Source: a virus. Taken from it: a stretch of DNA of 64,000 nt. The stretch lies in IMG/VR virus record IMGVR_UViG_3300034418_009484, positions 1-64,000 of that record, one strand, 5' to 3'. The position numbers were made by a program, and so were the translations under genes. Below the pieces are notes generated by a model. The model was not told the DNA's origin, did no database searches, and saw only the letters and a program-made list of their open reading frames with translations. Each line of letters begins with the position of its first letter. Positions within the stretch are counted from its first letter, which is position 1. Below, in pieces: positions 2,503-22,694 of the stretch.

Positions 2503-2515
2503 TTAGAGGTATAAA

Positions 2516-2695: not shown

Positions 2696-2705
2696 AGGTA
2701 AAAAT

Positions 2706-3850: not shown

Positions 3851-3874
3851 TTTAAATTAATTTGGAGTATTTAA

Positions 3875-4195: not shown

Positions 4196-4199
4196 AAAC

Positions 4200-4742: not shown

Positions 4743-4761
4743 TAAAATTTTGGAGTAAAAA

Positions 4762-4971
4762 ATGACTATTATATATCAGCCTAAAGGCTCAGGTACTGAA
4801 CATAAAGAAGGTACTATCGTTGTAAATTCACCAAGGGGCGCTTCTGCTGCTTCCGGCATTACATCTAATTATACAATTGATACTTATGTTACAAATTTAC
4901 CAACAACTGGTACTATAAACGATAAATATGATATTAGATTTACTGGTTGCGGTGATGTTTGTGGAAGTTAA
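4762..4971 (+). CDS. Hypothetical protein (69 aa)
   Basis: GGAG upstream; in operon. Confidence 0.6.
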   Translation: MTIIYQPKGSGTEHKEGTIVVNSPRGASAASGITSNYTIDTYVTNLPTTGTINDKYDIRFTGCGDVCGS

Positions 4972-4973
4972 AT

Positions 4974-5498
4974 ATGAATGCTTTTTCAGGAATAATCAAT
5001 AGCGATTTTAAGAATCTATTTAATAATGCTATTTCTGCATTGCTATATGACGATTCTTGCACACTGCCATGTACTTTATACTATGGTGTTACCAAGTATG
5101 AAGATTGTGTAAATTGTGTGTATGATCCTATTGGGCAAAAATCTTCTAATAGATTTCAAGATGGTGGTCCTATTCCATTTCCTTTTGGAAGTATATGTCC
5201 AATGTGTAATGGGAATGGTAAAAAACCAGTTGAAACTTCGGAAGATATAAATTTAATGATAATTTGGAATGTAAAAGAATTTGTAAATTTTGGTACTGTA
5301 AATGATGGTACTGACGACATGATTCAAACTATTACTTTTGCAACAAATACTCCTAAGTTAGTTAGAGCTAAAGAAATAATTGTAGCAAGTGATATAGAAG
5401 AATATACAAGACATAGATTTGAAAGAGCCTCTATGCCAAAACCGTGCGGCTTAGGAAATACTACATTTGTTGAATGTATTTGGAAAAGGTCAGGGTAA
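4974..5498 (+). CDS. Putative head-closure/neck protein with Cys motifs
   Basis: ATG at 4974 preferred to TTG at 4959. CxNC...CPMCNGNG motif; synteny. Confidence 0.45.
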   Translation: MNAFSGIINSDFKNLFNNAISALLYDDSCTLPCTLYYGVTKYEDCVNCVYDPIGQKSSNRFQDGGPIPFPFGSICPMCNGNGKKPVETSEDINLMIIWNVKEFVNFGTVNDGTDDMIQTITFATNTPKLVRAKEIIVASDIEEYTRHRFERASMPKPCGLGNTTFVECIWKRSG

Positions 5499-6133
5499 TG
5501 AGTATACAGGCAAAAATTGAATTGCCAAATTTTGATTCAGAATTTGATAAAAATATTAAAAAAGAAATAACAAATATTATATTGAAAAATATTAATGGGG
5601 TTGTTTCTAATATAGAAAAAAGATTAAAGATAATTGTTAAAAACTTAATAGAATCTTCGCCAGAATATAGCTCTATTAAAAGTGGTGATTTAAAAGGCGA
5701 GCTTGGAATTGTTTCTTCCAGTTCTATTGATGCAATAATAAGTAAATTTGTAGAAAGCGTAAAAGTTGAATACAAAAAGAATAAAGGATTTGGAAATATT
5801 GTTATAAAGATAATAAACTCAGATTATTCTGATGTTTTAACATTACCAGAAGCTTCTTATGTTTATTCTTCTAAACGTGGAGGTGGTGTTATTGAATGGC
5901 TACGTTGGTTGCTTCTTGAAGGCACTTCAATAATAGTTACTGAATATGATTTTGAAGCAGGACCGAGAGGTAGAACTGGTAGGGGTATAATGGTGAAAAA
6001 AATTGGCGGTTGGTCAGTTCCGGTAGAATTTGCTGGAACTGCCACTGACAATTTTGTTACACGTTCGTTATCTTCAATACAGGATGATATAGATATTACC
6101 GTAAGGCAAGAGATTACCAAAGGTTTAAAATAA
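5498..6133 (+). CDS. Putative neck/tail-completion protein
   Basis: TAATG-coupled start at 5498. WLRWLLLEG...GRTG...W.VP.EFAGT..NFVTR; synteny. Confidence 0.45.
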   Translation: MSIQAKIELPNFDSEFDKNIKKEITNIILKNINGVVSNIEKRLKIIVKNLIESSPEYSSIKSGDLKGELGIVSSSSIDAIISKFVESVKVEYKKNKGFGNIVIKIINSDYSDVLTLPEASYVYSSKRGGGVIEWLRWLLLEGTSIIVTEYDFEAGPRGRTGRGIMVKKIGGWSVPVEFAGTATDNFVTRSLSSIQDDIDITVRQEITKGLK

Positions 6134-7092
6134 TGGCTGTTTGTGGATTTAATAAAAGACTTAATAAGCATGTTACCAATATAGGTACTAGCTTATTAAC
6201 ATCTCAAATTGAGACTAACTTAAAAAGCTATTTAGATTGGGGATTATTAGGCGTTGGTTCATTTTCAAATGTAAATATTCCAACTTCTGGTGCTTTTGGT
6301 GGAACTTTTGATAAACTTAGGCTAGTTGACGATCCTTCATATATAGACGGTCAAGTTTGGGAAAGTCCAAGAAAAGATTGGGTTTGGGAAACTGGTGTTT
6401 ATTATGACACTCAACCAACAAATATTTCTGGCGTAAATGTTAATGGTATTTTTTACGGTACTGGAGATGCTACATATGGACATCATTATAATTATCCATT
6501 AGGAAGGGTTGTTTTCGATTCTGCTATACCAGTAAATAGTAATGTTCAATTAGAATATTCGTATCGAAATGTTCAAACATATATAGCGGATCAAGCTCCG
6601 TGGTGGGATGAAATTCAATACGGATCTTATAGGGTTGACGATTCTACTTTATATGATGTTGGATCAGGAAATTGGCAAATATTATCTAATCATAGAGTTC
6701 AACTTCCAGCGGTTGTTTTAGAAGCAACTTCTAGAAGGTCGTTTAAGCCTTATGAATTAGGCACTGTGAGTAATTTTGTATACACAGATGTTTTATTTCA
6801 TATACTATCTGAATCAAGATGGTGGAGAAATCAATTGGTTGATATAATTTCTCTAGAAAAAGATAGAAGTATATGGCTTTATGATAATAATCAAGTTGCT
6901 AGTGCTACTGGATATCCTTTAGATCATAGAGGCATGAAAGTTTCTAGTCCATTAATGTATCCTTATTTAGTTGATAATTACAGATATAAAATGGCTAGAT
7001 TTTTTAATATGGCTGTAACTGAAATGGAAAGTCCTAATAGCAGGCTGCATAGAGCAACAGTTAGGGCTACTTTTGAGATTGTTATGGCTTGA
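6133..7092 (+). CDS. Putative tail terminator/completion protein
   Basis: QLPAVVLE...YELG motif; immediately upstream of the major tail gene. Confidence 0.45.
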   Translation: MAVCGFNKRLNKHVTNIGTSLLTSQIETNLKSYLDWGLLGVGSFSNVNIPTSGAFGGTFDKLRLVDDPSYIDGQVWESPRKDWVWETGVYYDTQPTNISGVNVNGIFYGTGDATYGHHYNYPLGRVVFDSAIPVNSNVQLEYSYRNVQTYIADQAPWWDEIQYGSYRVDDSTLYDVGSGNWQILSNHRVQLPAVVLEATSRRSFKPYELGTVSNFVYTDVLFHILSESRWWRNQLVDIISLEKDRSIWLYDNNQVASATGYPLDHRGMKVSSPLMYPYLVDNYRYKMARFFNMAVTEMESPNSRLHRATVRATFEIVMA

Positions 7093-7100
7093 TTTTTTTA

Positions 7101-7122
7101 AATTGGTGTATTTAATTTAAGG
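7101..7122 (+). promoter_or_regulatory. Candidate phage promoter (GGTGTA + AT-rich)
   Basis: GGTGTATTTAATTTAAGG upstream of the tail tube gene; similar motifs at 56782, 58124 and 59854 on the - strand. Confidence 0.45.
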
Positions 7123-7178
7123 TAAATAAAAAAATACAATTCCTACCTATTAAAGATAAGATAACTAGGAGATAAATA

Positions 7179-8327
7179 ATGGCTAATAATAATAGAATTT
7201 ATTACCCTATGCAACAGGTTGCTTTTCGTAAGCCTGGAACCACTGTATATCGTGAAGCGCATGGGGTTCAAAGTGTTGCTATTACAACAACATTTAATCT
7301 TGAACAAGCTTTTGAGCTTGGTCAACTTGCGATTTATGAAAATATTGAAGGTATTCCAAATGTTGAAGTTACTCTAAATAAAGTTTTAGATGGATATCCG
7401 CTTTTATATTGTTTGGCTACAGCTACTAATGCTGCTGGTACTACCATTGAAAAGCCACAATTGGTTCAAAGGGCAGTTGGTGAAACTGTCATGAGTTTGG
7501 GCATTTGGCCTGAAACACAAGAAGCTGTATCGGGTCTTCCTTCCACATTTTGTGAAATGTCAGGCTTGACCGTTTCTTCTGTTAGTTATACATTCCCAAG
7601 TGAAGGTAACTTTACAGAAGATCTTAGTCTTGCTGGATTTAATAAAGTCTGGAGTACTTATGTTACTGGTGCTTCAGAATGCGAAGCTCCGTGGGCAACT
7701 GGAAGTCCAACTGGCGCTCCTAGTTTTCAAGATAATGCAGACGCCCCGATTGGTTCTGGCGGTGTAAACCAAAGAGAAAATATGATTTGGGCCATTAGTA
7801 ATCAGCAGGCCAGTTCAGCAGGAGGTGGAGATTATGGTATTCTTCCAACTGATATTCCTGGCGTTCAAGGATCTGGTTTCTTAAATAGAAGTATTGCTCA
7901 TATTTCTAACGTTTCAGTTAGTACAGACTTTTCTAGAGAAGACTTGTTTGAATTAGGTTCCAGAAGCCCTTATGCTAGAACAGTTACTTTCCCTGTTGAA
8001 GTCACATGTTCTATTGATGTTATTTCTGTTTCTGGTGACTTGGTTAATGCTTTAGACAATTGTAATGCAGACGTTGCATGTGAAACACCATCTAACTTGA
8101 GCGATCAAAAAATTAGATTGGCAACTTGCGAAGGCACTAGAATTTATCTTGGAGAAAAAAATAAATTATCTTCTGTCAGTTATGGTGGAGGTGATGCTGG
8201 TGGTGGAAATGTTACAGTAACGTATGAATATCAGACATTCAATGACTTTACTGTTCTTCATTCTGGCGATAATTTTAACACATCAGGTCAAGATATTTGG
8301 TCGAAACGTAGTAATTATTTGACTTAA
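7179..8327 (+). CDS. Major tail (tube) protein
   Basis: Strong AGGAG RBS and its own terminator. Two related halves (EQAFELGQ / EDLFELGS); upstream of chaperones and TMP. Confidence 0.65.
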   Translation: MANNNRIYYPMQQVAFRKPGTTVYREAHGVQSVAITTTFNLEQAFELGQLAIYENIEGIPNVEVTLNKVLDGYPLLYCLATATNAAGTTIEKPQLVQRAVGETVMSLGIWPETQEAVSGLPSTFCEMSGLTVSSVSYTFPSEGNFTEDLSLAGFNKVWSTYVTGASECEAPWATGSPTGAPSFQDNADAPIGSGGVNQRENMIWAISNQQASSAGGGDYGILPTDIPGVQGSGFLNRSIAHISNVSVSTDFSREDLFELGSRSPYARTVTFPVEVTCSIDVISVSGDLVNALDNCNADVACETPSNLSDQKIRLATCEGTRIYLGEKNKLSSVSYGGGDAGGGNVTVTYEYQTFNDFTVLHSGDNFNTSGQDIWSKRSNYLT

Positions 8328-8360
8328 TAAATAACTGATGTTTGAGATAAATAAATTAAG

Positions 8361-8396
8361 AGGGGAGGGAGGTTGTCTCCTTTCCCTTTTTATTTT
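8361..8396 (+). terminator. Intrinsic terminator
   Basis: AGGGGAGGGAG-gttgt-CTCCTTTCCCT, an 11-bp stem with GU pairs, followed by TTTTATTTT. Confidence 0.75.
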
Positions 8397-8408
8397 AGGA
8401 AATAGGAT

Positions 8409-9467
8409 ATGGACCAACAAAAGAAATTTTCATTAATAAATAGAATATCTACTGGAATAATATTTCAATCAGTAGAAGGAAACCTCTATAAATTATTGCC
8501 TCCTGATAATGAAATCAAGGCATTATCTGAATTTGTATATCAAGAAATGTTATACAATACAAAGTTTGACCAATTAATAAATAAAAGTCAAGCATCTTAT
8601 TTTCTGCAAAAAAAGAATATTTGGATTCCTTCTGATGAAAAAAAATTAGAAGATAATAACAAATTTATTGACGAATTAAAAATAGCTTTGTATAAATCTC
8701 TATATAATAATAAAGAACAGAAGCAGATTAGAAAAAAAATATCAATTGTTCAAAAAAATATTAATAAGCTATTAATGGCAAAACATTCACTTGATTATAT
8801 GACTTTAGAAAATTTTTCTGAAACTATAAGGGATGAATTTTTAATTGCTAATTGTATTCATACTTTAGATAATCAAAAGGTTTACAACTATAATAATTTT
8901 TGGCAAAGCGATTCAACTATTTTAAATAAATTTACAACCTTTATTCAAATGAATGTTATATCTTCTGAGGAGTATAGGGAAATAGCTAGGTCTGAGCCAT
9001 TTAGATCATTATGGCTAATAAGTAAAAGTGATATTTTTTCTAAACCTTCTTTAGAATTAACATTAGATCAAAAGAATATGATTTTATATTCTAAGATGTA
9101 TGATAATGTATATGAAAGCCAGGATAGACCCTCTGATGAAGTTATAGAAGATGATTTGATGCTAGACGGATGGTTTTCATTTCAAAAGAAAAAGAATGAG
9201 TTAGAAAGAAAGCAAAAAGAAGTTGATGATCTACTCAACAAAAAAGGATCAAATTCTGGTGCTGGGGATGTTTTTGTTATGAGTCCTAGCAGAGATGAGG
9301 CTAAAAGGGTTAGCGAATTAAATGATTTGAATGCTAAGATGAAATTAAAGCAAAGAAGAAATCAGATTGAAAAACAAGGAGTAGTTTCAGAAGAAAAGTT
9401 TGCAGATGTAAAAATGGATTTAAGAAATCAGGCTATGCAAAAAATGGCTAATAGATTTAAAGGATAG
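8409..9467 (+). CDS. Hypothetical protein, possible tail assembly factor
   Basis: 352 aa, helical and K-rich; lies between tube and TMP genes. Confidence 0.5.
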   Translation: MDQQKKFSLINRISTGIIFQSVEGNLYKLLPPDNEIKALSEFVYQEMLYNTKFDQLINKSQASYFLQKKNIWIPSDEKKLEDNNKFIDELKIALYKSLYNNKEQKQIRKKISIVQKNINKLLMAKHSLDYMTLENFSETIRDEFLIANCIHTLDNQKVYNYNNFWQSDSTILNKFTTFIQMNVISSEEYREIARSEPFRSLWLISKSDIFSKPSLELTLDQKNMILYSKMYDNVYESQDRPSDEVIEDDLMLDGWFSFQKKKNELERKQKEVDDLLNKKGSNSGAGDVFVMSPSRDEAKRVSELNDLNAKMKLKQRRNQIEKQGVVSEEKFADVKMDLRNQAMQKMANRFKG

Positions 9468-9469
9468 TT

Positions 9470-9784
9470 ATGAATGATAAAGAGTATAAAGATTTTTCAA
9501 AAAAAAGATTTTCAAATAATTTAGATAAAAAATTTAATACAACAATTATTGGTTCTTTAGCTAAATTTGAAGAGAATTTTGGTTTTTTGTGGGGTCATGG
9601 AATTCCTTATGCGGATTTAACAGATCAGCAAAAAGAGTTCAGAAAGATTTGGAAAAAGACAAGAATTTCTATATTAGATTCTGGTCATTCTAATTTGAGA
9701 GCTTGTCAAAGCGAGTTAAACCAATACGATGTTCATTGGAACAAGTATGTTACTAATTTAATTAATTTTAATTCTGAGGAATAA
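9470..9784 (+). CDS. Hypothetical protein
   Basis: 104-aa ORF in operon. Confidence 0.6.
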   Translation: MNDKEYKDFSKKRFSNNLDKKFNTTIIGSLAKFEENFGFLWGHGIPYADLTDQQKEFRKIWKKTRISILDSGHSNLRACQSELNQYDVHWNKYVTNLINFNSEE

Positions 9785-9796
9785 TAGGGGATAAGT

Positions 9797-10687
9797 ATGA
9801 GTTCTAAGATTGAAAAGAAAAAAGAAAAAAGAGATTTTGAAGTTGATGGTGTTAAGTATTCTGTAATAAGACCTAATATTCAAATTTTAACAGGAGCAAA
9901 TAAGATTAGAAGGGAAACTTTTAATCAAGAGCTTGAGGCTGGTTCTTTACTAAGAGATCAGCTTGAAGAAGAGCTTCGCAAAAGAGAGCTTTGGAGTGAT
10001 GAAAGAGAAGCTAATTATCAAAGGCTTAGGGTAGAGATAGTAGATAGAGAATATAAATTGGCTGCTGGTGGTATAAAGCTTTCAGAAGCAAAGCAATTAG
10101 CATTGGAAATGAAACAAAAACGAGAAGAAATGGTAGAGCTACTATCTTCTAGAACAGATTTGGACTCAAACACTTGTGAAGGACGAGCAGATGCAATGAG
10201 ATTTAATTATCTTTTTGCTAATTGTTTGGTGTATTCAGATAGTGGAGAAAAGTATTTTAAGAATGGCTTAAATGACTATCTTTTAAATCAAGAAGATTTG
10301 GTTGGTTTGGTTGGAGCATCGGAATTCTTTTATCTGATTTCTGAGACAGATCAAGTTGATGATAAATTACCTGAAAATAAATTTTTAAAACAATTTAATT
10401 TTGTAAATGAAAAATATCAACTAGTTGATAAAGAAGGTAGATTGGTCGATCAAGAAGGTAAACATATTGATGAAAATGGAAATCTTATTGAATGGTTGAA
10501 TGATAAAGATTTTATTTATGTTGATATAAATGGTAGACAACTAGATGATGATGGCAACTTTAAAGTTGAATTTTCTCCATTCCTAGATGACGAAGGCAAT
10601 CCTATTGGATTAGAAGAAGATAAAACTGTAAAAAAAACAACGGCACGACGAAAAAAAACATCTCCTAAAAAAGAGGAAGTAGTTTAG
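9797..10687 (+). CDS. Putative tail assembly chaperone
   Basis: Directly upstream of TMP; acidic, coiled-coil, with DxxG short repeats near the C-terminus. Confidence 0.5.
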   Translation: MSSKIEKKKEKRDFEVDGVKYSVIRPNIQILTGANKIRRETFNQELEAGSLLRDQLEEELRKRELWSDEREANYQRLRVEIVDREYKLAAGGIKLSEAKQLALEMKQKREEMVELLSSRTDLDSNTCEGRADAMRFNYLFANCLVYSDSGEKYFKNGLNDYLLNQEDLVGLVGASEFFYLISETDQVDDKLPENKFLKQFNFVNEKYQLVDKEGRLVDQEGKHIDENGNLIEWLNDKDFIYVDINGRQLDDDGNFKVEFSPFLDDEGNPIGLEEDKTVKKTTARRKKTSPKKEEVV

Positions 10688-10766: not shown

Positions 10767-13700
10767 ATGGCTTTTAATATAAATGCACAGGTTGTTCTAA
10801 GCGGTCCTAAAAATATAAAGACCGTAAGAAGTAATATAAAAAAACAATTATCTGGAATAACAACAAATGTAAAAGTTGATTTAAGTAAAGCTGCAAATAC
10901 AAATTTATCTAACTTAAATAAACAGCTAAAAACAACAAATTCTATATTAAAGCAAGTTGCTTCAAGCGCAACGACTGCTAATAAGCAAATATCTAGTCTT
11001 TCCAAAGGTATAAATCAAGCTTCTACTAGTGCTGGTAATTTAGGTAGAAATGCCAATAACCTATCAAATTCTTTTAATAATGTTACTAAGTCTGTTGCTC
11101 AATCTAGGGGAGAAATAGAAAATTTTGGTAGGGATGCTGCACTAGCTATTCGTAGATTCTCTGCTTTTACTATTGCTACTGGCGCTGTATTTGGATTTAT
11201 CAGAGCAGTAAAAGAAGGTATTAAAGACTCAATTGAGTTTGAAAGACAATTATCTAGAATTGTTCAAGTTACTGGAGCAACAGATAAACAAATCAAAGGT
11301 TTAGAGTCAACTATTGATGGATTGGCAGCAACTTTAGGTTTAAATTCAAATGAATTAGCAAAAACTTCTGTTACGTTGGCGCAAACTGGTCAGACAATAG
11401 ATCAGGTAAGAAAGTCTTTAACTGCTATTAGTAAAGCTAGTTTAGCACCTACATTTGGTAATATTCAAGATACCACAGAGGGTGTTATCGCTGCTCTAAA
11501 TCAATTTCAGATTAGTGCAGATAGAACAGAAGCGGTTCTTGGTTCTTTGAATGCTGTTTCTAAAAGATTTGCTGTTGAATCTGAAGATTTGATTTCTGTT
11601 ATTCGTCGTGCTGGTGGTGTTTTTGCTACTGCTGCTGGAGATATTGCAGAACCAGAAAAGGCTCTTGCTGAACTTGTTGGTATTTTTACTGCTGTAAGAT
11701 CTACGACTAGAGAAAGTGCAGATACTATTGCAACTGGTCTTAGAACTATCTTTAGTAGAATTCAAAGAAAAGGAACTATTGAATTTTTAAAGAACTTCAA
11801 TATTGAACTTACAAATGCCCAAGGTCAATTTGTAGGTTTCTTTGAAGGTTTTAGAAGAATTGCTGAAGGACTAAATGATATACAAAGAAGGGGCGATACT
11901 ATTACTCTGGGTAGAGTAGTAGAAGAATTGGGTGGTATCCGTCAAATTGGAAAAATCTTACCTGCTATTCAACAATTTACTAAGGCCGAAGAAGCTAGAG
12001 CAGTTGCTTTAGCCGGTACTGAAAGTATTACAAAAGATGTTGCTATTGCTACGCAAACATTAGCAGTTCAAATACAGCAGTTGCAAGCAAGATTTCAAAC
12101 GTTAATTAAAGATATTTCTCAGTCTACAACTTTTCAAAGATTAGCTTCTTTTGCTCTTAGTACAGCGAATGCATTTATTACTTTGGCAGATGCTTTAAGA
12201 CCTGTTATTCCTTTATTAACTACTTTTGCTACAATTAAAATTGGTGGAGCAGCATTAGAATTTGCTCAAGGTTTCGTTGGAGGTATTAAAAAGGGTGGTG
12301 GAGCAGGAGGTGTAGGCAAGGGCTTATCTGGCGCTATTACAGGTCAGGGTGGAGGTGGAGGTCAGCTTAATCTGAAACCTTTGCAAACTGCCTTAACAGC
12401 AAATACAAATAGTGTTAATACTAATACTAGCTCTGTAAATCAAAATACAAACTCATCAACTACTTTAACTACTTCTGTAAGAACTTTAGATTCCAGTGTA
12501 AAAGCTTTAACAACAGCTATTAGTAGATCTAGCCTTACTGGTGGCGGCGGTACTTTAGGAAGAAGAAGAAGGGCTTTGGGTGGATCTATACCAAGATTCC
12601 AAAAGGGTGGTTTTGTAAATGGGCCTGGACACGCTCAGGGTGGTGTTATAGCGGAGCTTGAAGGTGGTGAATTTGTTGTTCCTAAAAAACAGGTTCAGAA
12701 ATTTGCAAGAGGTGGTAAAAAATCTAAGCTTAATAAAAAGAATGCTTATATATTTGATTTTGACGATACTCTTGCTACTACAGAAGCTAAAGGGTTTAAA
12801 GAATTTAGCGATCCTAAATTTGTTAAAAGTGCATCTGCAACAAGATATGCTTCTTTAGCAAAACGTAGGGCTTCACAAGGCGATGATATACATGTTTTAA
12901 CTGCTAGGTTTGGTGGAGGTGGAATTAGAGAAGCTATTGCTGATTTTATGGCAAAGAATGGAATAGCAACAAAAAGTGTTATTGCTGTTGGTGGTGCGTT
13001 TCCAAAAGATAGAGAACCTGGGAAAAGACCTGGGACAACAAGAAAATTAAGTACTGCTTCAAAGAAAGCCAAAGTATTATCTAAACTTTCTAATAATTAT
13101 AATAAAATAACATTTCTTGATGATAATGCTGAAAATCTTATACAGGCAGCTAAGGTTAAAGGAGTTTCTTCTGTAGAAGCGAAAGAGTCAAAACTGTTTA
13201 AAAATAGAAAGGCTCTTGGTGGAATTATACAAAAGCTTGCTGTTGGAGGAAAAGTCAAGGCAGGCGAACTTAGAATTGGTGATATTTTAGACACTGGAGA
13301 AATTGTAAAAGCCGCTTTAAAAACAGGTAATCGACAGAGAAGAAAAATAAATCTAACATTAGAGAAAGATGGTGTTAGGAAAACAGAACGGGTTGAGTTC
13401 TCTAAGCTGTTTGGTTTAAAGAGCAGAGGAAAAGGTATATCTCCAATAAAACTTAATAGCGGGGGAATTATACAAAAGTTTGAACTTGGAGGTCTTACAA
13501 GAAATGCAGTAAGAAACCCCGGAAGAAACCCATTAAGCGATATTTTTCAGGTTAATCAAGCGGCTGGTGCTAAATTACCTATACAAAATACTAAACAATT
13601 TGGTTCTTTCTTAAAGAAAAAGTTCGGCAATAAAGTTTCTGCGGCAGATTTCGGAGAATTTTCACCCACCGAACAAAAAGCTCTAGTTAAAGAATTTAGA

Positions 13701-16700
13701 GGTGGAGAGTCAGCACCTAAACAACCTAAACAACCAAAACAACCAAAACAAGATGGAGATCCAGATAATCTTACTTCGATAAGTGGAAAACTAGGAAGGG
13801 GTCGTGGTGCTAGAATTGTAGGAGCGCAGATTCAAGGTGTTCCTTTTGGTGTTACGTTCTTAAATAACCCACCATCCAAATTGCAACAAACAATTAATGG
13901 TGTTTTGAAGGATGGTAACCAAACAGGAAAGTCTACACTAAACAAGCTTATTATAAAAGAGCTTCAAAGATTTGGTGGTCCTGCCACTAGAGATAAAACT
14001 AAAAGATTTGGAATAAAATCTGGCGCACAACTTTCAGCGCCAAACGCACAGATTGGAACTTTTAAATCTAATGGTAAAAAGGCTTTTGAAGATGAGGTAG
14101 AAGGTGGTATTCCTCCAATTTTTGAAAATGCTACTAGAAATTTCTTTGAATCTGCTGGTATTTCTGGTCCTGCACCTAAATTCTCCCTTAATCAACTTGT
14201 TAGTAAATCTGCCGTTGGTTCTATTACTGGTCAATTCTTTGAGGCATTTACTAGGTCTGTAGGTAATCAGCCTATTTTGACTGGCGCTCAAGATGATGCG
14301 GATGACATTTTTGATTTCAGATCAAAACCTCAAAATGCAGACGCACTTTTTACTAAATTTGCATTGCCAAATGAATTTAAGAATACAGGTAGTAGCACAG
14401 AAAATATTAGAAATGCTATTTCCAAATCTTTCTCTTTGCCCGGAACTTTGGTTGATTTTCAAACAGAAGTATTTAAATTAAATCAACAAAGTGCTAATAG
14501 AGGCGGCGAGATAAATAATGCCAATGCAATATTAACTCCCGGTGAGGCTGTATTCGGTGCTAAGAAAGCTTCTCAAATAGGAATTTCTAATTTAAGTAGG
14601 TTAAATAAAACAGGAGATGCTTCTGGGTTAAATATTTCTAACTCTGATTTTTCTATTGTTCCCGGTAGTGGAAATAGTGATACTGTTCCTGCAAGTCTTG
14701 AGCCTGGGTCTTTTGTTATTAAAAAATCTTCTACACAAGAAGGTTTGCAGACTTTTAATTCTGGTGGCAAAGTTCAAAGATTCCAAGGGGGTGGAAGTAA
14801 AGGTGGAGGTCTTGGTGGTGGTATTACTCAGTTGGCTTTGTTTGCTAGTTTTGCGGATTTGGGCGAAAGCGCTAATCAATTAATAACATTATTCTTTGGT
14901 TTAGAAACTGTTTTAGGTTTATTTGGAAAAGATCTTAGTGATTTAGGTAAGAGTTTTAAAAAACAAAACAAAGCTTTAACAGATTTGTCTTCTCAACAAA
15001 GAAAAGAAGCAAAAAAAGTTAGAGGAAGACTTAAAGCTCCTATTAGGGGAGCAAAAGTTAGCGGATTAACAGCTTCAGCATCTAGGGCAGCAAGATTAAA
15101 AGCAGTAAGATCTGTTAGAGGTACTGGTGGATTTGGAACCGCAGGAAGGTTTGGAAGAACTGCTGCTAAAATTGGTGGCAAAGGTGGTCTTGTTGCTATT
15201 GTTGCATCGCTTTTGGTTGATCCAATAACACAGGCCATAAAAACTGGTTTTGGAGAAGTAGAACTTGAAACGGGACAAAGAGGTTTTAGAGGCCCAGGAG
15301 GTTTAGAGACTGCTCAAGCTATTGGTACTGGCAGCGGTGCTGTATCTGGCGCTTTAGCTGGTGCTGGTTTAGGTATTGCTGGAGGTCCAGTAGGAGCTTT
15401 AATAGGGGGTATTGCTGGTGCTGCTGTTGGTGGTATAAAAGGATTTTTTGATGCAGCATCGGCTCAATTAGAATTTCAGGCTTTTGACCAATTTAATAAT
15501 GCTTTGGGTAAATCTACTGAATTAATAGATGAATTTAATAAAAATGCTAGTGTAGAAAATTTAGGTAAATTAAATCAAGCTACTGCTGAAGTGTTTTCAA
15601 GTTTTGAAAGATTAGCTAAAAATACAATTGAAGCAAGAGAAACATCATTTAGTAGTCAATTACTTGGTGGATTAGATACAAATATTTTTGATAGTTTCAG
15701 TACTGCTTCTGGTCTTTATGAAAAAAGTGTTTTTCTTTTTGATAAAGCTGCTCAGTTTTTTGGTCGTGGTACTAGCGATCTTGTTAAAAGTATTGAAAAA
15801 TCAGCAACAGCACAAAAAAGAGGTGGTTTGTTTGGTGATATTCTTGCTGGTATTGCACCTCGAATTGATAAAATAGCCAGTGCTAATATTAAAGGTATTG
15901 AAGCAACATTTAATGCTATACCTTTAGATCAATTAAAAGCCTTAGATTTTAACGATATTGATTCTTTAGATGCAGTAAAAGATCAACTAAAAGATCTTGG
16001 CGTTGAGGCGAAAGATGCTGAAATTGTTCTTGGAAATTTAGAAGCAGCTTTAACACTTCAAGGTATTAATGATATATCTTCTGAATTACCAGAGGCTGCT
16101 AGAAAAGCATTCTTAGGAGCGGCAAGTGAAGCTTTAGCAGCAGGAACTAGTATCGCTGATGCAGTAGAACTAGCATTTTCACCTGACCAATTAGTTAGAC
16201 TTGGAATAACCGCTGAGAATGCTAAACAAATAGTTGAACAATTAAATAATACAATTGGTGAAGAAGCAGTTGCTGAATTAATAGCTTATCAAAAAGAACA
16301 GGTTGAGCTTAGTAGAATTTTATCAGAAACTTCTAGGGAAATAGATGCTTTTGGTGCTGCGTTAAATTTATTGTCTGGTGGTATTGCTGGTATTGGTTCT
16401 GATTTTTCTACACTTCTTGGAAATATACAATCAGATCTTGATGCCAGTCTTAGTAATGATTTCACGGTAAGGAGACAACAAGCTCCTAATGTGTTTGAAA
16501 ATGTCACAGGAAGACTGCCTGATGAAATCAATAACGCCGTAAATAATTTAGGAAAGATTCTAAATACAGATGTATTAGATGGTGCTGGTAAAATTGTAAA
16601 CTTGCAAAATGAGTTACCTAGAGCATTAAAAGATACTGTTACTGCTTTAGCATCGCAAACTTCTGGAGGTATTAGTGGTGCTGGTCAATTTACAGACGAA

Positions 16701-19700
16701 CAAATATTAGATGAATTTAAAAATGCGATAACAGAATTTGATAAACTGCCATCATTTGTTCAGCAAAACCTTGAAGCTACTTTACGAGGCATCGTAGGTG
16801 GGAGTAGACAGGGAGAAGGAGGAAAAGGAGCAGTATCCTTACAGAAATTATTAGAAGAAGGTAATTTTGACCAACTAAATCAGATATCAGTAGAATTTGC
16901 TGAAAATCTTTCTGAAATACAAAGTGCTGTAAATGATTTTCAAAATGCTATTGCGCAAGGCGCTAATAATATTAAGAAAATTAATAATTTAAGATTAAGA
17001 ACTGACTTAGAAATTAACGCTAAGAGACAGTCTTTTGAAGATAGATTTGGTCAATTCTTGAATCAAACTGTTGACGAAAGAGCCAAGGCTGAGAAAAGAT
17101 TAAGAGATACTATTGATACACAATTGCGTGCTGGCACTGGTGGTCCTGGCATTGGTGCTGGAGGTATTGATGCTGATGCTTTAGCTAGAAGAAGGGAAAA
17201 ATTACTACAAACAAGAGATAATTTACAAAAGCAACTGGAAAATCCTGAACTTGGTCAAGCTGAATTTGATTCTTTAACTAAGGCTCTTGGTGATAACGCT
17301 TCTAAATTAGATGGTACAACAGCAGCATTAAAAACATTATCAGAAGATGTAACACAGCTTGAAGCTGTAGAAGGAGAATTAGCAAAGATACAAGAATCTA
17401 GATTAACAGGAAGGGAAAGAGCAAGACTATTTGCTTCTAGAGCGCAAGATGCATCAACTCCAGCAGAATTTGCCAAATTATTTCAAGATTTTCTTGCGCC
17501 AACAATTGCCATTGCTAAAGCACAACAGGGTGGTCCTATTGGTTTTGGAGAAGCTGCTGCTATATTAGGAGATCCGCAACAGATTAAAGATGTTTTTGGT
17601 TTTGATGATGCTCAAATAGAGTCTATATTAGCCGGAACAACACAGGGAATTGGTGATACTTTTGCTAATCTTTTAGCTTCATTTGGTGTCGGTAGAAATG
17701 CTGCTCCTATTGCTAGAGGTTTGTTTGGGGCTGGTGCTACAGAAGCGGGGTCTACTGCTAAAGAACAAGAACTTCTTGCCGAAGCTGCTAGGTTACAGCT
17801 TGAAAGAGAACAGGCACTTCTTGCATTAAGAGATCAAAATATAACTTCTGCCGAAACACTTCAGCAACAGTTTTCTGATCTTATTGGAACAACTTCTCAG
17901 TCTCTTACCAATCTTATTGCTAAGGCTCAAGAATTAAGAAGTTCATCTGTTATACCTCCTTCTGCTGGTTCAGAACAGCAAGCAGAACAAGATATAGCTC
18001 AAGTTTTTAGAAATGCAGTTAAACCTTTAGATAGTACTGGCGCTGAATTAAGTAATGCTGCTAGTAGTTTACAAAGAGCAGCACAGGCTATACAAGAGGC
18101 TGTTAAAGCGCCAGAAGTAAAACCTGTTAAAAAAATCAGTGAAACTGCTATAAATCAAAACATTCCTCCTTCGTTTCCGGTGTTACGACGTCAAAACGGA
18201 GGTTCTATATTTAAACCAAGAGGAACAGACACAGTTCCTGCCATGTTGACTCCTGGCGAATATGTAGTAAATGCAAAAGCTGTAAAAAAAGGATCGAATC
18301 TTCAGTTATTAAAAGATATAAATGATGGTAAGGTTACTATTCCAAAATTTGCTAAAGGTGGAATGGTTGGTTATTTTGATAGAGGGGCTTTAGTACCATC
18401 GGAAGATGAATTTATATTACAGGAATTAGTAAAGCGAGAAGACAAAAGTATTTTAGATGCGACTAAAACTATTCCTAATCTAAGAACTCCTTCGCGAGAA
18501 TCAGTTGAAAAGTCGGCTGCTGATAAATTATCAGAATTAAAAAGACAAGGGTTTAATCAAGATGCTAGCAAGCTTGCTGGTGTGTCAAGCAGTATTCAGA
18601 AAACTTCTGGGTCTTTCGGTTCAGGAACAGATGATAAACTTCTTGATTTTTTCACATTGTTAAATCAAATTTCTGCTCAAGAAATTGAACGTAAAGATAA
18701 AATAAGGAATTCAGCCGCAGGGGAACGCGCAACTGATCTTTTAAGCTTACCTTTAGAGCTACCCTTTCTTCCAGAAAAGATTTTTGAAACAACGACAGGA
18801 ACAGATCTACGTAAATTTTCACAAACTCTAGATCCATTCGCAGTGGATGAAGATCGAAATCAAAAAGGTATAAGAAGTCTAGCAAATAAATCTTCAGATC
18901 AGATTATAGGTGGGTTTGCAAATCTCGTTCAAGGAGGAATTAATAGCGTAATTGGTCGTGATCCAACCGATTTACTAGATCAGATTGATTTTGCTGCGGT
19001 GGGTCGTGGTGACGGTTCAGCAAGTTTTGACGATATACAATTAGCAGAAATACTTGAATTGCAAAAAAAGGCTGCTGAAGGTATTTTAAAAAGCAGGACC
19101 AGTTTGCAAAGCAATGAAAATTTAAGCAGTCTTAGTAATCTAAGACTTTTTGGGAACGACGAGGATTTTAGAGCGGCGGGTGGCACTTTTAAAGATAGTG
19201 GAGAAAGAAATATTTTACCCGAAGAAGAAGCTTTGTCTAATTTTTTAGCTATAAGAAGAAAGGCAGATCAAGATACACTTGCAGAATTTCGTAAAAAAAA
19301 TCCCACCAATATTGATCCTAATCTTATTATACCAGCAGGACAAACGCCAGAAGATTTTATACAAACTGATAGAGGCGATACAAGTGTAGCAGGTTTGCTA
19401 AAGAGGGCGCCAAATATTATTAGCAATGAAGGCATTAGAGATTCAATTTCAGGCTCAACACAACAGGAAAGGTTGGAGGCAGCGAAAAAAAGAAATGAGG
19501 CTTTCTTTGCTGATAAGAAAAAATTGGATACTACTAAAACAAAAAATACAAGCAAGTTTGGTGAGATGGGACAAAGCTTTGGAGAGGCTGCTCCTTTTCT
19601 AGAAAATGTTCAATCTGGTAGAATTTCTGGACTAGCCCCTTTAATACCATCACTGCCTCGTTCACAATTTAGCAATGATGAGAAGTATCAAGATTATAGG

Positions 19701-21044
19701 CAAAAATTAAGAGAAGAAAAGTTTGGTAATGAGTCTGGAAGGCTTGAAGCCCAGTTTAAGGCACAAGAGCAAACTAAACCACAAATAAAACAAATTCAAA
19801 AAGAAATAGCAAAAACAATACCAGGGTCTACGAGAAGGAAAGAACTTGAAAAACAATTATCAGAACTTGAGAATCCTAAAATTTCTTCTAAGAAACAGGC
19901 TTCACCAAGATCAAAACAAGGTAGCATTACCAAGGGTAAACCTGAGAGATCAAAGGTTAGTACTATCAATGGTAAAGCTATAACGGACAAAAGTGGAAAG
20001 GTCATAAAACCAATCAAAGATTCGCCTTTTATTAACAAGCCGACCACCTTAACTTCAGATGAGTTAGCTGCTAAAAGAGAGGCGTTTTTAAGCACAAAGC
20101 CACAAAGTAAAGCTGAGTCACCGCCTGAAAGAGAAAAGAAAGAGCAAGAAGCTAGAATAAAGAGACAACAACAACCACAAAGTCAAGCACCCTCAAGTGG
20201 CTCTAAAGTTGACCAGCCCACACAGTTAACTGCTCCACCGCAACGCAAGATAACGCGAGAACGAATTGAGCAAACGAAAGGCTTTGACTTCAAAGCTGCT
20301 ACACGAAGGGCCATAGATGCTGATGAAAGAGCCAAGGCTGAGAAAAGACTAAGAGATACTAATGCTCCTGAAGGATCAAATCGACTTTTAGACACTAAAT
20401 ACAGTGCTCCTGGTCTTGAGAATGTAGACCCAGTGACACTTGCTGGCGGGCAAGCACAATTCGCTGACCAACAAGCTCGATCAACAGCGGTACGACAAAG
20501 GCAACGTAATGCTCCTGCAAGTATACCAACAGATTTACCTGCAACTTTAGGATTACCTCCACAACAAGAACCAGCAACAAATCTACAACAACAAGAAAAT
20601 TTAAGAAGCAGACAAGCAAGAATACGAAGAACACAGGGTGAAGGAGCAGCATCTAGATTTGGACAAACTTTTGGATTAAGAAATAGTGGTCCTGGGCAAA
20701 GAGCAGGATTGCCTGGAGGTCAAGGCCAAGGTCAAGCTGGCGCTCAAGATTTTACTGCTTTTTCAGATTCAGTAGCAAAGCTACAGGAAACCACTAAATC
20801 ATTAACAGCATTTGCAACTCAATTAAATACTGCTGCTGATAAATTAGCACAATTACAAACTATTGAAGTTAGTTTAAATGCCAGAGTTGAACCAATTCAG
20901 GTTATATTAAATGGGGCAAGTATTATTAATGAATTTGGTGATACTGCTAAGAAAGAGATATATAATCAGCTTGTAACTAAATTAGAAGACGAATTTGTTA
21001 AGAAAACTCCTGATGGCAGTATAAATGAACCGACACTTGGATGA
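10767..21044 (+). CDS. Tail tape measure protein (3425 aa) with embedded enzyme domains
   Basis: TP901-type core (FERQLSRI..., LNAVSKRFAV, ELVGIFTAVRSTTRESADTIATGLRTIFSRI), glycine zipper, long helical tracts, DTVPAMLTPGEYVV motifs and an internal HAD domain. Confidence 0.9.
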   Translation: MAFNINAQVVLSGPKNIKTVRSNIKKQLSGITTNVKVDLSKAANTNLSNLNKQLKTTNSILKQVASSATTANKQISSLSKGINQASTSAGNLGRNANNLSNSFNNVTKSVAQSRGEIENFGRDAALAIRRFSAFTIATGAVFGFIRAVKEGIKDSIEFERQLSRIVQVTGATDKQIKGLESTIDGLAATLGLNSNELAKTSVTLAQTGQTIDQVRKSLTAISKASLAPTFGNIQDTTEGVIAALNQFQISADRTEAVLGSLNAVSKRFAVESEDLISVIRRAGGVFATAAGDIAEPEKALAELVGIFTAVRSTTRESADTIATGLRTIFSRIQRKGTIEFLKNFNIELTNAQGQFVGFFEGFRRIAEGLNDIQRRGDTITLGRVVEELGGIRQIGKILPAIQQFTKAEEARAVALAGTESITKDVAIATQTLAVQIQQLQARFQTLIKDISQSTTFQRLASFALSTANAFITLADALRPVIPLLTTFATIKIGGAALEFAQGFVGGIKKGGGAGGVGKGLSGAITGQGGGGGQLNLKPLQTALTANTNSVNTNTSSVNQNTNSSTTLTTSVRTLDSSVKALTTAISRSSLTGGGGTLGRRRRALGGSIPRFQKGGFVNGPGHAQGGVIAELEGGEFVVPKKQVQKFARGGKKSKLNKKNAYIFDFDDTLATTEAKGFKEFSDPKFVKSASATRYASLAKRRASQGDDIHVLTARFGGGGIREAIADFMAKNGIATKSVIAVGGAFPKDREPGKRPGTTRKLSTASKKAKVLSKLSNNYNKITFLDDNAENLIQAAKVKGVSSVEAKESKLFKNRKALGGIIQKLAVGGKVKAGELRIGDILDTGEIVKAALKTGNRQRRKINLTLEKDGVRKTERVEFSKLFGLKSRGKGISPIKLNSGGIIQKFELGGLTRNAVRNPGRNPLSDIFQVNQAAGAKLPIQNTKQFGSFLKKKFGNKVSAADFGEFSPTEQKALVKEFRGGESAPKQPKQPKQPKQDGDPDNLTSISGKLGRGRGARIVGAQIQGVPFGVTFLNNPPSKLQQTINGVLKDGNQTGKSTLNKLIIKELQRFGGPATRDKTKRFGIKSGAQLSAPNAQIGTFKSNGKKAFEDEVEGGIPPIFENATRNFFESAGISGPAPKFSLNQLVSKSAVGSITGQFFEAFTRSVGNQPILTGAQDDADDIFDFRSKPQNADALFTKFALPNEFKNTGSSTENIRNAISKSFSLPGTLVDFQTEVFKLNQQSANRGGEINNANAILTPGEAVFGAKKASQIGISNLSRLNKTGDASGLNISNSDFSIVPGSGNSDTVPASLEPGSFVIKKSSTQEGLQTFNSGGKVQRFQGGGSKGGGLGGGITQLALFASFADLGESANQLITLFFGLETVLGLFGKDLSDLGKSFKKQNKALTDLSSQQRKEAKKVRGRLKAPIRGAKVSGLTASASRAARLKAVRSVRGTGGFGTAGRFGRTAAKIGGKGGLVAIVASLLVDPITQAIKTGFGEVELETGQRGFRGPGGLETAQAIGTGSGAVSGALAGAGLGIAGGPVGALIGGIAGAAVGGIKGFFDAASAQLEFQAFDQFNNALGKSTELIDEFNKNASVENLGKLNQATAEVFSSFERLAKNTIEARETSFSSQLLGGLDTNIFDSFSTASGLYEKSVFLFDKAAQFFGRGTSDLVKSIEKSATAQKRGGLFGDILAGIAPRIDKIASANIKGIEATFNAIPLDQLKALDFNDIDSLDAVKDQLKDLGVEAKDAEIVLGNLEAALTLQGINDISSELPEAARKAFLGAASEALAAGTSIADAVELAFSPDQLVRLGITAENAKQIVEQLNNTIGEEAVAELIAYQKEQVELSRILSETSREIDAFGAALNLLSGGIAGIGSDFSTLLGNIQSDLDASLSNDFTVRRQQAPNVFENVTGRLPDEINNAVNNLGKILNTDVLDGAGKIVNLQNELPRALKDTVTALASQTSGGISGAGQFTDEQILDEFKNAITEFDKLPSFVQQNLEATLRGIVGGSRQGEGGKGAVSLQKLLEEGNFDQLNQISVEFAENLSEIQSAVNDFQNAIAQGANNIKKINNLRLRTDLEINAKRQSFEDRFGQFLNQTVDERAKAEKRLRDTIDTQLRAGTGGPGIGAGGIDADALARRREKLLQTRDNLQKQLENPELGQAEFDSLTKALGDNASKLDGTTAALKTLSEDVTQLEAVEGELAKIQESRLTGRERARLFASRAQDASTPAEFAKLFQDFLAPTIAIAKAQQGGPIGFGEAAAILGDPQQIKDVFGFDDAQIESILAGTTQGIGDTFANLLASFGVGRNAAPIARGLFGAGATEAGSTAKEQELLAEAARLQLEREQALLALRDQNITSAETLQQQFSDLIGTTSQSLTNLIAKAQELRSSSVIPPSAGSEQQAEQDIAQVFRNAVKPLDSTGAELSNAASSLQRAAQAIQEAVKAPEVKPVKKISETAINQNIPPSFPVLRRQNGGSIFKPRGTDTVPAMLTPGEYVVNAKAVKKGSNLQLLKDINDGKVTIPKFAKGGMVGYFDRGALVPSEDEFILQELVKREDKSILDATKTIPNLRTPSRESVEKSAADKLSELKRQGFNQDASKLAGVSSSIQKTSGSFGSGTDDKLLDFFTLLNQISAQEIERKDKIRNSAAGERATDLLSLPLELPFLPEKIFETTTGTDLRKFSQTLDPFAVDEDRNQKGIRSLANKSSDQIIGGFANLVQGGINSVIGRDPTDLLDQIDFAAVGRGDGSASFDDIQLAEILELQKKAAEGILKSRTSLQSNENLSSLSNLRLFGNDEDFRAAGGTFKDSGERNILPEEEALSNFLAIRRKADQDTLAEFRKKNPTNIDPNLIIPAGQTPEDFIQTDRGDTSVAGLLKRAPNIISNEGIRDSISGSTQQERLEAAKKRNEAFFADKKKLDTTKTKNTSKFGEMGQSFGEAAPFLENVQSGRISGLAPLIPSLPRSQFSNDEKYQDYRQKLREEKFGNESGRLEAQFKAQEQTKPQIKQIQKEIAKTIPGSTRRKELEKQLSELENPKISSKKQASPRSKQGSITKGKPERSKVSTINGKAITDKSGKVIKPIKDSPFINKPTTLTSDELAAKREAFLSTKPQSKAESPPEREKKEQEARIKRQQQPQSQAPSSGSKVDQPTQLTAPPQRKITRERIEQTKGFDFKAATRRAIDADERAKAEKRLRDTNAPEGSNRLLDTKYSAPGLENVDPVTLAGGQAQFADQQARSTAVRQRQRNAPASIPTDLPATLGLPPQQEPATNLQQQENLRSRQARIRRTQGEGAASRFGQTFGLRNSGPGQRAGLPGGQGQGQAGAQDFTAFSDSVAKLQETTKSLTAFATQLNTAADKLAQLQTIEVSLNARVEPIQVILNGASIINEFGDTAKKEIYNQLVTKLEDEFVKKTPDGSINEPTLG
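12741..13200 (+). other. HAD-superfamily phosphatase domain inside the TMP
   Basis: Motif I YIFDFDDTL, motif II VLTAR, motif III Lys (SKKAKVL), motif IV ITFLDDNAENL. Confidence 0.85.
13716..13751 (+). repeat. 9-nt tandem repeat encoding (PKQ)4 linker
   Basis: CCTAAACAA x2 then CCAAAACAA x2. Confidence 0.9.
17072..17112 (+). repeat. Direct repeat copy 1 (DERAKAEKRLRDT)
   Basis: 39/41 nt identical to 20321-20361. Confidence 0.9.
20321..20361 (+). repeat. Direct repeat copy 2 (DERAKAEKRLRDT)
   Basis: 39/41 nt identical to 17072-17112. Confidence 0.9.
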
Positions 21045-22667: not shown

Positions 22668-22694
22668 TTTTATTAAAATAAGGAATAAATAAGA

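Follow-up and report, generated by a model that had tools for sequence, protein, structure and literature searches.

The window analysed here is the first 64,000 nucleotides of IMG/VR record IMGVR_UViG_3300034418_009484, which derives from an uncultured, marine-type phage. A single stop-free open frame at positions 10767-21044, located like all of the features described below on the plus strand, encodes the tail "ruler", or tape measure protein (P0001), of 3,425 residues and is the longest ORF of a co-directional plus-strand block. Residues 183-372 (11313..11882) match the PF10145 PhageMin_Tail core with an E value of 7e-20 and a score of 72.2 bits, the cut-off for this family being 33.2 bits, and the protein additionally matches eight PHROG tape-measure families. 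The PF10145 score and the great length of the ORF assign P0001 to the tail tape measure proteins of the TP901 type, as an earlier note on this DNA had supposed when it placed a phosphatase inside such a protein. The N-terminal core is common to 652 giant relatives. Pfam and PHROG searches with the structural genes that neighbour P0001 gave no match, and neither did tblastn with the phosphatase domain or megablast with the entire gene against a phage genome collection; a single-domain search of viral contigs for related loci was likewise negative. The haloacid dehalogenase (HAD) domain considered below is the sole enzymatic domain recognised in P0001 by Pfam search. A nuclease-like block at residues 1040-1260, a candidate for a PD-(D/E)xK fold, yielded a low-confidence, all-helical model (pLDDT 50.7).

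All four HAD motifs are present, in the right order, within residues 659-811 (12741-13200). Motif I (FDFDDTL, residues 663-669; 12753..12773) contains D664 and D666, the predicted nucleophile and predicted general acid/base, respectively, and T668. Motif II (LTAR, residues 711-714; 12897..12908) contributes T712 and R714, motif III comprises K766-K767 (13062..13067) at the start of a helix formed by residues 119-131 of the structural model, and motif IV (FLDDN, residues 783-787; 13113-13127), taken together with N790, extends over 13113..13136. The translation therefore carries the DxDx(T/V) signature, the motif II Ser/Thr, the motif III Lys and the motif IV DD pair by which the superfamily is recognised. 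Conservation was assessed across 78 homologous cluster representatives, comprising 33 stand-alone phage proteins and 45 domains embedded in giant proteins, nearly all of them tape measures. Every one of the 78 has D664, D666, T712, R714, K767, D785 and D786, while T668 is kept in 76 and N790 in 77; among the 32 tape measures found first, every one has the DxDxT pattern with hydrophobic flanks, and 30 have exactly FDFDDTL. This invariance, in embedded copies that are otherwise as low as ~27-35% identical, bears out the description of the domain in the earlier note as catalytically complete. The HAD domain is also far better conserved than the sequence that flanks it; that of tape measure P0002, for example, is 91% identical to the P0001 domain, compared with 41% for the N-terminal core. 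A basic beta-hairpin insert, DREPGKRPGTTRK (residues 748-760; 13008..13046), with strands at model residues 105-107 and 114-116, is variable, being carried by about 32 of the 45 embedded and about 9 of the 33 stand-alone homologues. With a median pI of 9.96 the embedded copies are strongly basic, whereas the stand-alone ones are neutral (6.8).

An AlphaFold2 model of the domain (pLDDT 91.2, pTM 0.84, with pLDDT above 90 across model residues 11-160) comprises a folded phosphatase core at residues 660-804 (12744..13178) with the five-stranded, Rossmann-like alpha/beta architecture of the HAD superfamily. The model lacks a separate cap domain, its only inserts being a two-helix segment of ~24 residues after motif I and a beta-hairpin of ~20 residues ahead of motif III, so the term cap-less is correct. 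The profile and structure search that had been suggested as a check thus predicts a HAD fold, and places T4 Pnkp and bacterial Pnkp1 nearest to it. Indeed, the best Foldseek match is the 3'-phosphatase of T4 Pnkp (E 1.3e-6), and Z scores (VIA) are 16.8 for 5uj0, 15.8 for 1ltq and 15.1 for Pnkp1 (4xrp). The Pnkp group lies 3-5 Z units above the other HADs, the highest of which is AphA at no more than 12.4, and its lead is seen both in the Foldseek-based comparison and in a Foldseek-independent scan of 48,161 chains. Z was at least 8 for 330 of the best 1,000 Foldseek chains, and all 50 of the entries listed have the HAD fold. The structural matches thus agree with the model in assigning the domain to the superfamily, and the closest similarity is to the Pnkp phosphatase module. 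A plain single-sequence search of the PDB returned noise only.

The likeness to the T4 enzyme (PseT; PDB 5uj0, 1ltq and 2ia5), which the earlier note had recognised from the motif pattern, extends to the details of this cap-less DxDxT fold. Superposition on 5uj0 aligns 133 of 142 T4 residues with an rmsd of 2.2 A, and hhalign of the family profile against PseT gives a probability of 84% (E 7.6e-6) over 166 columns, despite a pairwise identity of just 17-20%. In this alignment D664 and D666 correspond to T4 D165 and D167, T712 and R714 to S211 and R213 of the S211-G-R213 motif, and D785 and D786 to D277 and D278. The lysine pair at 766-767 falls at T4 K258; K767 is the probable equivalent, hhalign being offset by one column so that K258 stands opposite K766. 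The hairpin before motif III aligns in both proteins, reading REPG in P0001 and REQG in T4. The T4 residues R246, R176 and R279 are presumably contacts for the polynucleotide. These positions are not universal, an R246-like hairpin being absent from a third of the embedded copies, K675 (aligned to R176) being variable and the position of R279 being occupied by Asn. Roles of the catalytic T4 residues paired in the alignment, D165 and D167 among them, are documented (PMC3592404).

PHROG 415, annotated as polynucleotide kinase, matches at an E value of 1.3e-6. Together with the hhalign match to PseT, the modelled fold, the structural matches and the motif conservation, this takes the resemblance far past what chance would give. 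The Pfam HAD_PNKP family (PF25109) gave no match to the domain at E <= 1, nor to the genome at E <= 10, and the stand-alone relatives score 19-23.5 bits against it, below the gathering cut-off of 27.6 bits. Because that cut-off is not reached, Pfam does not class the domain as a T4-type 3'-phosphatase. No curated Pfam or NCBIfam model matches the domain at its cut-off, NCBIfam providing only sub-threshold matches to generic HAD subfamilies.

There are also marked differences from the named enzymes. T4 Pnkp has a fused 5'-kinase, which the P0001 domain lacks, and is a soluble protein that is expressed early, whereas the P0001 domain is embedded in a structural protein of the virion and is strongly basic (pI 9.8, compared with 5.5 for the T4 domain). 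Pnkp1 (4xrp, 4xru), which aligns over 135 residues with an rmsd of 2.7 A, is a kinase-phosphatase that works with ligase and methyltransferase partners in the bacterial Pnkp1-Rnl-Hen1 complex for RNA repair; none of these partners is seen around P0001. The 92-kb record, which is ~59% complete, has no match to the AAA_33 P-loop kinase family. Nor was a ligase partner found in it, the search with RNA_lig_T4_1 (Rnl1-type RNA ligase) being negative in the record and in every control genome.

Comparison with related proteins revealed that the domain sits on a discrete cassette. Tape measure relatives P0127, P0128 and P0129 align to P0001 residues 1 to ~645 and then directly to residue 901 onward. 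Each of the three has one KFxxGG linker, whereas P0001 has two, with ~259 residues between them, which places an in-frame insertion at residues 645-903 with junctions exactly at the linker. Inclusive of both bounding linkers, the cassette (residues 645-909; 12699..13493) consists of KFARGG, the HAD domain, a spacer module and KFELGG. The spacer module (residues 821-903; 13227..13475) is ~80 residues in length and has homologous copies of 50-65% identity after the HAD domain in P0002, before it as three tandem copies in P0009, and before it in P0033. The linker coding sequence is itself repeated, as a 32-nucleotide direct repeat at 13218..13249 (GGIIQKLAVGG) and, 84% identical, at 13461..13492 (GGIIQKFELGG), the second copy lying at the downstream edge of the cassette. 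The 120 relatives nearest to P0001 in their N-terminal core (45-74% identity) all lack the HAD domain, which is present in more distant tape measures at up to 91% identity; the cassette is therefore optional, and the unit of HAD domain and spacer module moves between giant tape measures encoded by uncultured phages. In GC and GC3 the cassette does not differ from the remainder of the gene, so its composition gives no sign of recent import.

Fold, motifs, motif conservation, cassette boundaries and tape-measure context are thus established together. What they describe is, to judge from the residues retained and from the modelled fold, an apparently active, catalytically complete and cap-less phosphatase inside a tape measure protein. 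Homologues elsewhere place the domain in the company of other enzymes. In the polyvalent protein P0082 it lies between an ART-PolyVal ADP-ribosyltransferase domain and a nucleotidyltransferase, and in other tape measures that bear the HAD domain an ADP-ribosyltransferase or a domain related to cytidylyltransferases is present. The neighbours of distant stand-alone homologues in IMG/VR contigs form an uninformative set, comprising a family B DNA polymerase, GIY-YIG, an M19 peptidase, a phosphomannomutase and many small ORFs. In GTDB genomes distant stand-alone copies were found only on two Bacteroidota MAG contigs, both short, which assign neither a prophage nor a host. A cultured relative of the phage would probably have a marine Bacteroidota host.

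The usual view of tape measure proteins is that they act as rulers and form channels. The only enzymatic exceptions known to us are motifs of peptidoglycan hydrolases and a single published fusion to a polymerase, and a search of the literature found no paper that connects HAD or phosphatase domains with tape measure proteins, or that describes the cassette. To these exceptions the present data add a conserved phosphatase, catalytically intact as far as its sequence reveals, which is mobile as a cassette among giant tape measures that many uncultured phages encode and has ADP-ribosyltransferases and nucleotidyltransferase-type domains as sister cassettes in related proteins. The published precedent for delivery of an enzyme by a tape measure is gp96 of the Thermus phage P23-45, a protein of 5,002 residues with a virion RNA polymerase, responsible for transcription of the pre-early genes, as its N-terminal part (PMC10770324). 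Like P0001, gp96 is a giant tape measure with an enzyme, in its case one that has nucleic acid as its target when infection begins; the polymerase, however, occupies the extreme N-terminus, whereas the phosphatase of P0001 is on an internal cassette. A second parallel is with the polyvalent proteins of phages and conjugative elements, which are multi-domain proteins with swappable enzymatic modules that are believed to accompany the DNA into the cell (Iyer et al. 2017, PMC5512222). These have several enzymatic domains, as P0082 does, compared with the one recognised in P0001, and the account of Iyer et al. mentions neither tape measures nor HAD phosphatases.

The preferred interpretation is that P0001 carries an active phosphatase as tape-measure cargo and delivers it to the host, whatever the substrate, to which a probability of roughly 0.55 is assigned. 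Residues ~660-804 would constitute a Mg2+-dependent, cap-less HAD phosphomonoesterase of T4-Pnkp-like type. Since the phosphatase is part of the tape measure, it is expected to reside in the tail lumen, to be ejected and to act ahead of any phage gene expression, the phage thus probably bringing an enzyme made in advance into its host. Each virion would expel a few copies into the cell before or alongside the DNA. Delivery in the virion is in itself reasonably probable, since phages expel their tape measure proteins upon infection and an enzyme fused to one is documented (PMC10770324). Against this interpretation stand the lack of a curated family model that matches at its cut-off, the negative kinase and ligase searches in the ~59% complete record, the variability at the T4 polynucleotide-contact positions and the T5-named clusters that a language-model search places nearest, as well as the small number of enzyme copies expected per virion and the dispensability of the cassette in the closest relatives.

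The substrate may be a macromolecular or nucleotide 3'-phosphate, as is suggested by the open active site and by the nearest structural relatives; macromolecules are the typical substrates of cap-less (C0) HADs, for example Pnkp, Fcp1/Scp1 and MDP-1. The best candidates would be 3'-phosphate or 2',3'-cyclic-phosphate ends of nucleic acids, although this more specific assignment is tentative. A more speculative and rather unlikely extension is that the Pnkp-like phosphatase enters the cytoplasm with the leading end of the genome and clears, prior to phage expression, 3'-phosphate or 2',3'-cyclic-phosphate blocks from nucleic acids cut by host defence nucleases or from the ends of the phage DNA, giant tape measures being general vehicles for swappable counter-defence enzymes. 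The end-healing, anti-defence role put forward in the earlier note is likewise an inferred one, since a kinase or ligase partner was not found in the genome at its present completeness. Were the substrate indeed broken nucleic-acid ends, a T4-style repair activity would have acquired a new timing and a new route. More generally, the cassette makes testable whether long-tailed phages inject ready-made enzymes via the tail lumen.

Other interpretations assume a different substrate. One, which appears doubtful but fares best, is that the enzyme is a mononucleotide phosphatase comparable to T5 Dmp, a 5'-deoxynucleotidase, or to the 5'/3'-nucleotidase AphA, delivered to clear nucleotides or a phosphorylated nucleotide signal at infection. 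T5 Dmp (a deoxynucleoside-5'-monophosphatase of 244 residues) likewise comes from a phage, belongs to the HADs, has the DxDxT and TAR motifs and comes into action as infection begins, albeit as a pre-early expressed and not a packaged protein; 17 of the 30 nearest named clusters in the ESM Atlas carry its family (PF26880 Phage_T5_dNMPase) with scores of 0.93-0.94; AphA comes directly behind the Pnkp group in structural similarity (Z 11.8-12.4); and T4 Pnkp itself hydrolyses 3'-TMP (PMC3592404). However, hhalign against T5 Dmp gives a probability of only 22% (E 9.5e-4) over just 72 N-terminal columns, far short of the match to PseT, and BLASTP detects no match between the domain and Dmp. In addition, a few enzyme molecules per cell are ill-suited to the bulk turnover of nucleotides, and a small substrate would have no cap around it, unless one is supplied by oligomerisation.

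Injection of a phosphoprotein phosphatase resembling MDP-1, Fcp1/Scp1 or the Legionella effector Lem4, which would reset a host signal such as kinase-based abortive infection or envelope stress, is less likely again. An open, cap-less site would suit protein substrates, Lem4 HAD structures are among the Foldseek matches, and the stand-alone relatives touch the Pfam DUF2608 and NIF families. MDP-1 is moreover the best PDB profile match (E 0.0018), restricted to the motif IV region, but its structural Z score of 10.3 is far under that of Pnkp, and no insertion of Fcp/Scp type or targeting domain is seen.

It is improbable that the domain is an envelope enzyme that dephosphorylates lipid A, undecaprenyl, heptose or capsule phosphate during penetration, in parallel with the peptidoglycan hydrolase domains of tape measures. 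To our knowledge the well-documented enzymatic inserts in tape measures all act on the envelope, with the exception of the P23-45 RNA polymerase, which counts in favour of such a role. The second tier of structural neighbours similarly includes the heptose-bisphosphate phosphatase GmhB (Z 11.5-11.7), the lipin/Pah and Nir2 LNS2 lipid phosphatases (Z 9.8-11.3) and the periplasmic AphA, and relatives of the domain have weak Pfam LNS2 matches. However, these neighbours are 4-6 Z units under the Pnkp group, the stand-alone homologues sit among small early-type or replication genes rather than lysis or envelope genes, and the sister cargo domains (ADP-ribosyltransferases and nucleotidyltransferase-related domains) require cytoplasmic co-substrates.

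Finally, it seems most improbable that the domain is without catalytic function in the host and serves to lengthen or bulk out the tape measure as a structural spacer, or in tail assembly only: it is flanked by repeated spacer-like modules and Gly-rich linkers, and the basic pI of embedded copies, set against the neutral stand-alone ones, reflects adaptation to the tape-measure or tail-lumen setting, but the catalytic residues, which a mere spacer would not have kept, are all invariant across the 45 divergent embedded copies, within a domain much better conserved than its flanks.

The source record in IMG/VR, a linear virus contig of 92,392 bp, is estimated to be 59% complete, and positions 1 to 27746 hold a block of co-directional genes on the plus strand. 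The longest member of this block, an uninterrupted ORF at 10767-21044 (+), encodes the 3,425-aa protein P0001, which matched Pfam family PF10145 across aa 183-372 (72.2 bits; cut-off 33.2) and, within its N-terminal 500-850 residues, eight PHROG tape-measure families; it is a tape measure protein. The large structural-block ORFs that flank it at 430-10687 and 21069-27746 (690, 245, 319, 382, 352, 296, 532 and 1,683 aa) gave no matches in Pfam or PHROG at E <= 0.001, and the virion module of this phage appears to be very divergent. Two hydrophobic Gly-rich segments at aa ~1466-1562 (15160-15450; Kyte-Doolittle windows beginning at aa 1466-1475 and 1528-1543) are the sole membrane-like stretches in P0001, and are candidates for its channel-forming part.

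The earlier note described four HAD motifs, in order, inside the tape measure at 12741-13200, and translation bore this out as written: the span corresponds to aa 659-811 and carries, on the plus strand, FDFDDTL (aa 663-669), LTAR (aa 711-714), KK (aa 766-767) and FLDDN (aa 783-787). A minus-strand ORF at 12746-13072 overlaps the HAD-coding stretch and is most readily interpreted as a shadow of the conserved HAD frame. Searched as a single sequence, the domain returned sub-threshold HAD matches only in Pfam, and PHROG 415 ('polynucleotide kinase') with an E value of 1.3e-6. A search of 5.8 billion proteins recovered the domain, at 38-85% identity, in 31 giant tape measures of 2,173-4,667 aa; with P0001 included, the motif-I pattern is present in 32/32 tape measures and exact FDFDDTL in 30/32. 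HMMER, run exhaustively against 1.84 billion cluster representatives, gave 73 matches, including stand-alone phage-type HAD proteins of 137-190 aa. Among 78 cluster representatives (45 embedded and 33 stand-alone), D664, D666, T712, R714, K767, D785 and D786 are invariant and N790 is conserved in 77; judged from its motifs, the embedded domain is catalytically complete. The AlphaFold2 model, with the homologue alignment as input, is confident (pLDDT 91.2, pTM 0.84) and has a five-stranded Rossmann-like core. A short insert of two helices follows motif I, a beta-hairpin precedes motif III, and a cap domain is absent, which upholds the cap-less HAD fold suggested previously.

Comparison of the model with solved structures placed T4 Pnkp 3'-phosphatase (5uj0, 1ltq, 2ia5), AphA and Pnkp1 at the top of the Foldseek matches, in keeping with the likeness to T4 PNK that had been proposed. 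VIA-align scores were Z 16.8 for 5uj0 (rmsd 2.2 A over 133/142 residues), 15.8 for 1ltq and 15.1 for Pnkp1, versus 12.4 for AphA, the best non-Pnkp HAD, and 10-12 for GmhB, HisB-N, Nir2/lipin and MDP-1. Scanning 48,161 representative chains independently of Foldseek left the ranking of HADs unchanged; mammalian PNKP reached only Z 9.9 there. Profile comparison by hhalign gave a probability of 84% against PseT from the T4 record (E 7.6e-6, 166 columns) and only 22% over 72 columns against T5 Dmp; the nearest ESM Atlas clusters are named after T5 5'-deoxynucleotidase. The PseT alignment pairs D664/D666 with D165/D167, T712/R714 with S211/R213, D785/D786 with D277/D278, the hairpin REPG with T4 REQG and KK with K258; R176, R213 and R246 of T4 presumably contact substrate phosphates. 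In T4 Pnkp, D165 is the nucleophile, D167 the acid/base, S211 and K258 contact phosphate and D278 binds Mg2+; the enzyme hydrolyses 3'-TMP and heals ends that bear a 2',3'-cyclic phosphate, a 3'-phosphate or a 2'-phosphate (PMC3592404). Curated Pfam and NCBIfam models nevertheless gave no match at cut-off: HAD_PNKP did not match the domain, its relatives scored 19-23.5 bits, below the 27.6 cut-off, and NCBIfam returned only sub-threshold generic HAD subfamilies. Since structure and profile lie nearest Pnkp, yet no curated model matches at cut-off, the domain is read as an unclassified phage HAD family with the Pnkp phosphatases as its nearest solved relatives.

The domain sits in the tape measure on a mobile, in-frame cassette. 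The close relatives P0127, P0128 and P0129 are collinear with P0001 as far as ~aa 645 and from aa 901 onward; they have a single KFxxGG linker followed by LTRNAVRNPGRNP, where P0001 has KFARGG, ~259 aa, KFELGG and then the same continuation. The insert comprises the HAD and an ~80-aa spacer module, which is bounded by a 32-nt linker-coding repeat; copies of the module, differing in number and order, occur in the HAD-bearing proteins P0002, P0009 and P0033. GC3 is the same in the cassette as elsewhere in the gene. The N-terminal core recovered 652 giant relatives, and HMM and motif searches found no HAD in the best 120 of these (45-74% identity). Across 44 HAD-bearing giants, alignment is limited to the N-terminal core (25-48% identity), the HAD (27-91%) and short PGE[FY]V modules, and P0002 is 91% identical to P0001 in the HAD versus 41% in the core. 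A tree of the domain groups 37 tape-measure copies and 3 fragments in a single clade (support 0.865) that neighbours stand-alone 140-aa proteins; this suggests that the domain was captured a few times and then spread from one tape measure to another. The embedded form is strongly basic (median pI 9.96, net charge +12) and the stand-alone form neutral (median 6.8), a difference read as adaptation to the tape-measure setting.

Apart from the N-terminal core, the HAD and short PGE[FY]V or Gly-Gly linker modules, P0001 has almost no detectable similarity to the other tape measures that bear the HAD. The blocks that it has in common with its closest relatives are aa 901-1392, aa 1812-2473 and the final ~100-160 residues, and the protein resembles a mosaic of blocks that can be exchanged. 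A small module at aa 1040-1260 (13884-14546), common to HAD-bearing and HAD-lacking relatives, has the consensus GxLFE ... FDF ... ExK, with near-invariant G1155, E1159 and D1183 and ExK in the majority. It may be a PD-(D/E)xK nuclease; its AlphaFold2 model, poor and all-helical (pLDDT 50.7), speaks neither for nor against this.

Of 14 HAD-bearing tape measures examined, individual members have a further domain: an ADP-ribosyltransferase, a cytidylyltransferase-related region or DUF6861. ADP-ribosyltransferases require NAD+, which argues that tape measures of this class bring their cargo to the cytoplasm. The cassette is N-terminal to the hydrophobic Gly-rich segments, so the HAD probably occupies the head-proximal part of P0001; with tape measures oriented as usual, this part would be the last to leave the tail and would lie beside the DNA. 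Delivery into the host is a reasonable inference. A literature search found no published description of a HAD phosphatase in a tape measure; a published case of an enzyme fused to one is that of phage P23-45, whose fused virion RNA polymerase transcribes pre-early genes and, as its authors propose, works at the pore that the tape measure forms (PMC10770324). The favoured substrate is nucleic-acid ends with a 3'-phosphate or cyclic phosphate, because the Pnkp group stands clearly apart in structure from every other HAD, the active site is open and cap-less, and the very low copy number expected of the enzyme suits rare macromolecular targets over bulk metabolites. A nucleotide, phosphoprotein or envelope phosphate is a possible substrate instead. 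Neither a kinase nor an RNA ligase was found in the 92,392-bp record, which is an estimated 59% complete.

Fusions of this HAD family also occur in other large phage proteins. The metagenomic protein P0082 (907 aa) combines ART-PolyVal (PF18760), a HAD homologue and an NTP_transf_2 nucleotidyltransferase, a classic polyvalent-protein make-up that may provide a useful second context for the HAD substrate; P0066 is a GNAT-HAD fusion, and P0090/L017 another HAD-bearing giant. Proteins of ~2,960-2,990 aa on two IMG/VR contigs (L027:3923-12799 and L028:3539-12508) have a distant HAD at ~aa 2030-2320, matched by PHROG 415 in L028; neither matched a Pfam or tape-measure family, and they may be other virion giants with HAD cargo. 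One tape-measure relative is annotated to a Crocinitomicaceae MAG, distant stand-alone copies lie on Cytophagales and Flavobacteriaceae MAG contigs, and Tara Oceans is among the sources, all weak hints of a marine Bacteroidota host.
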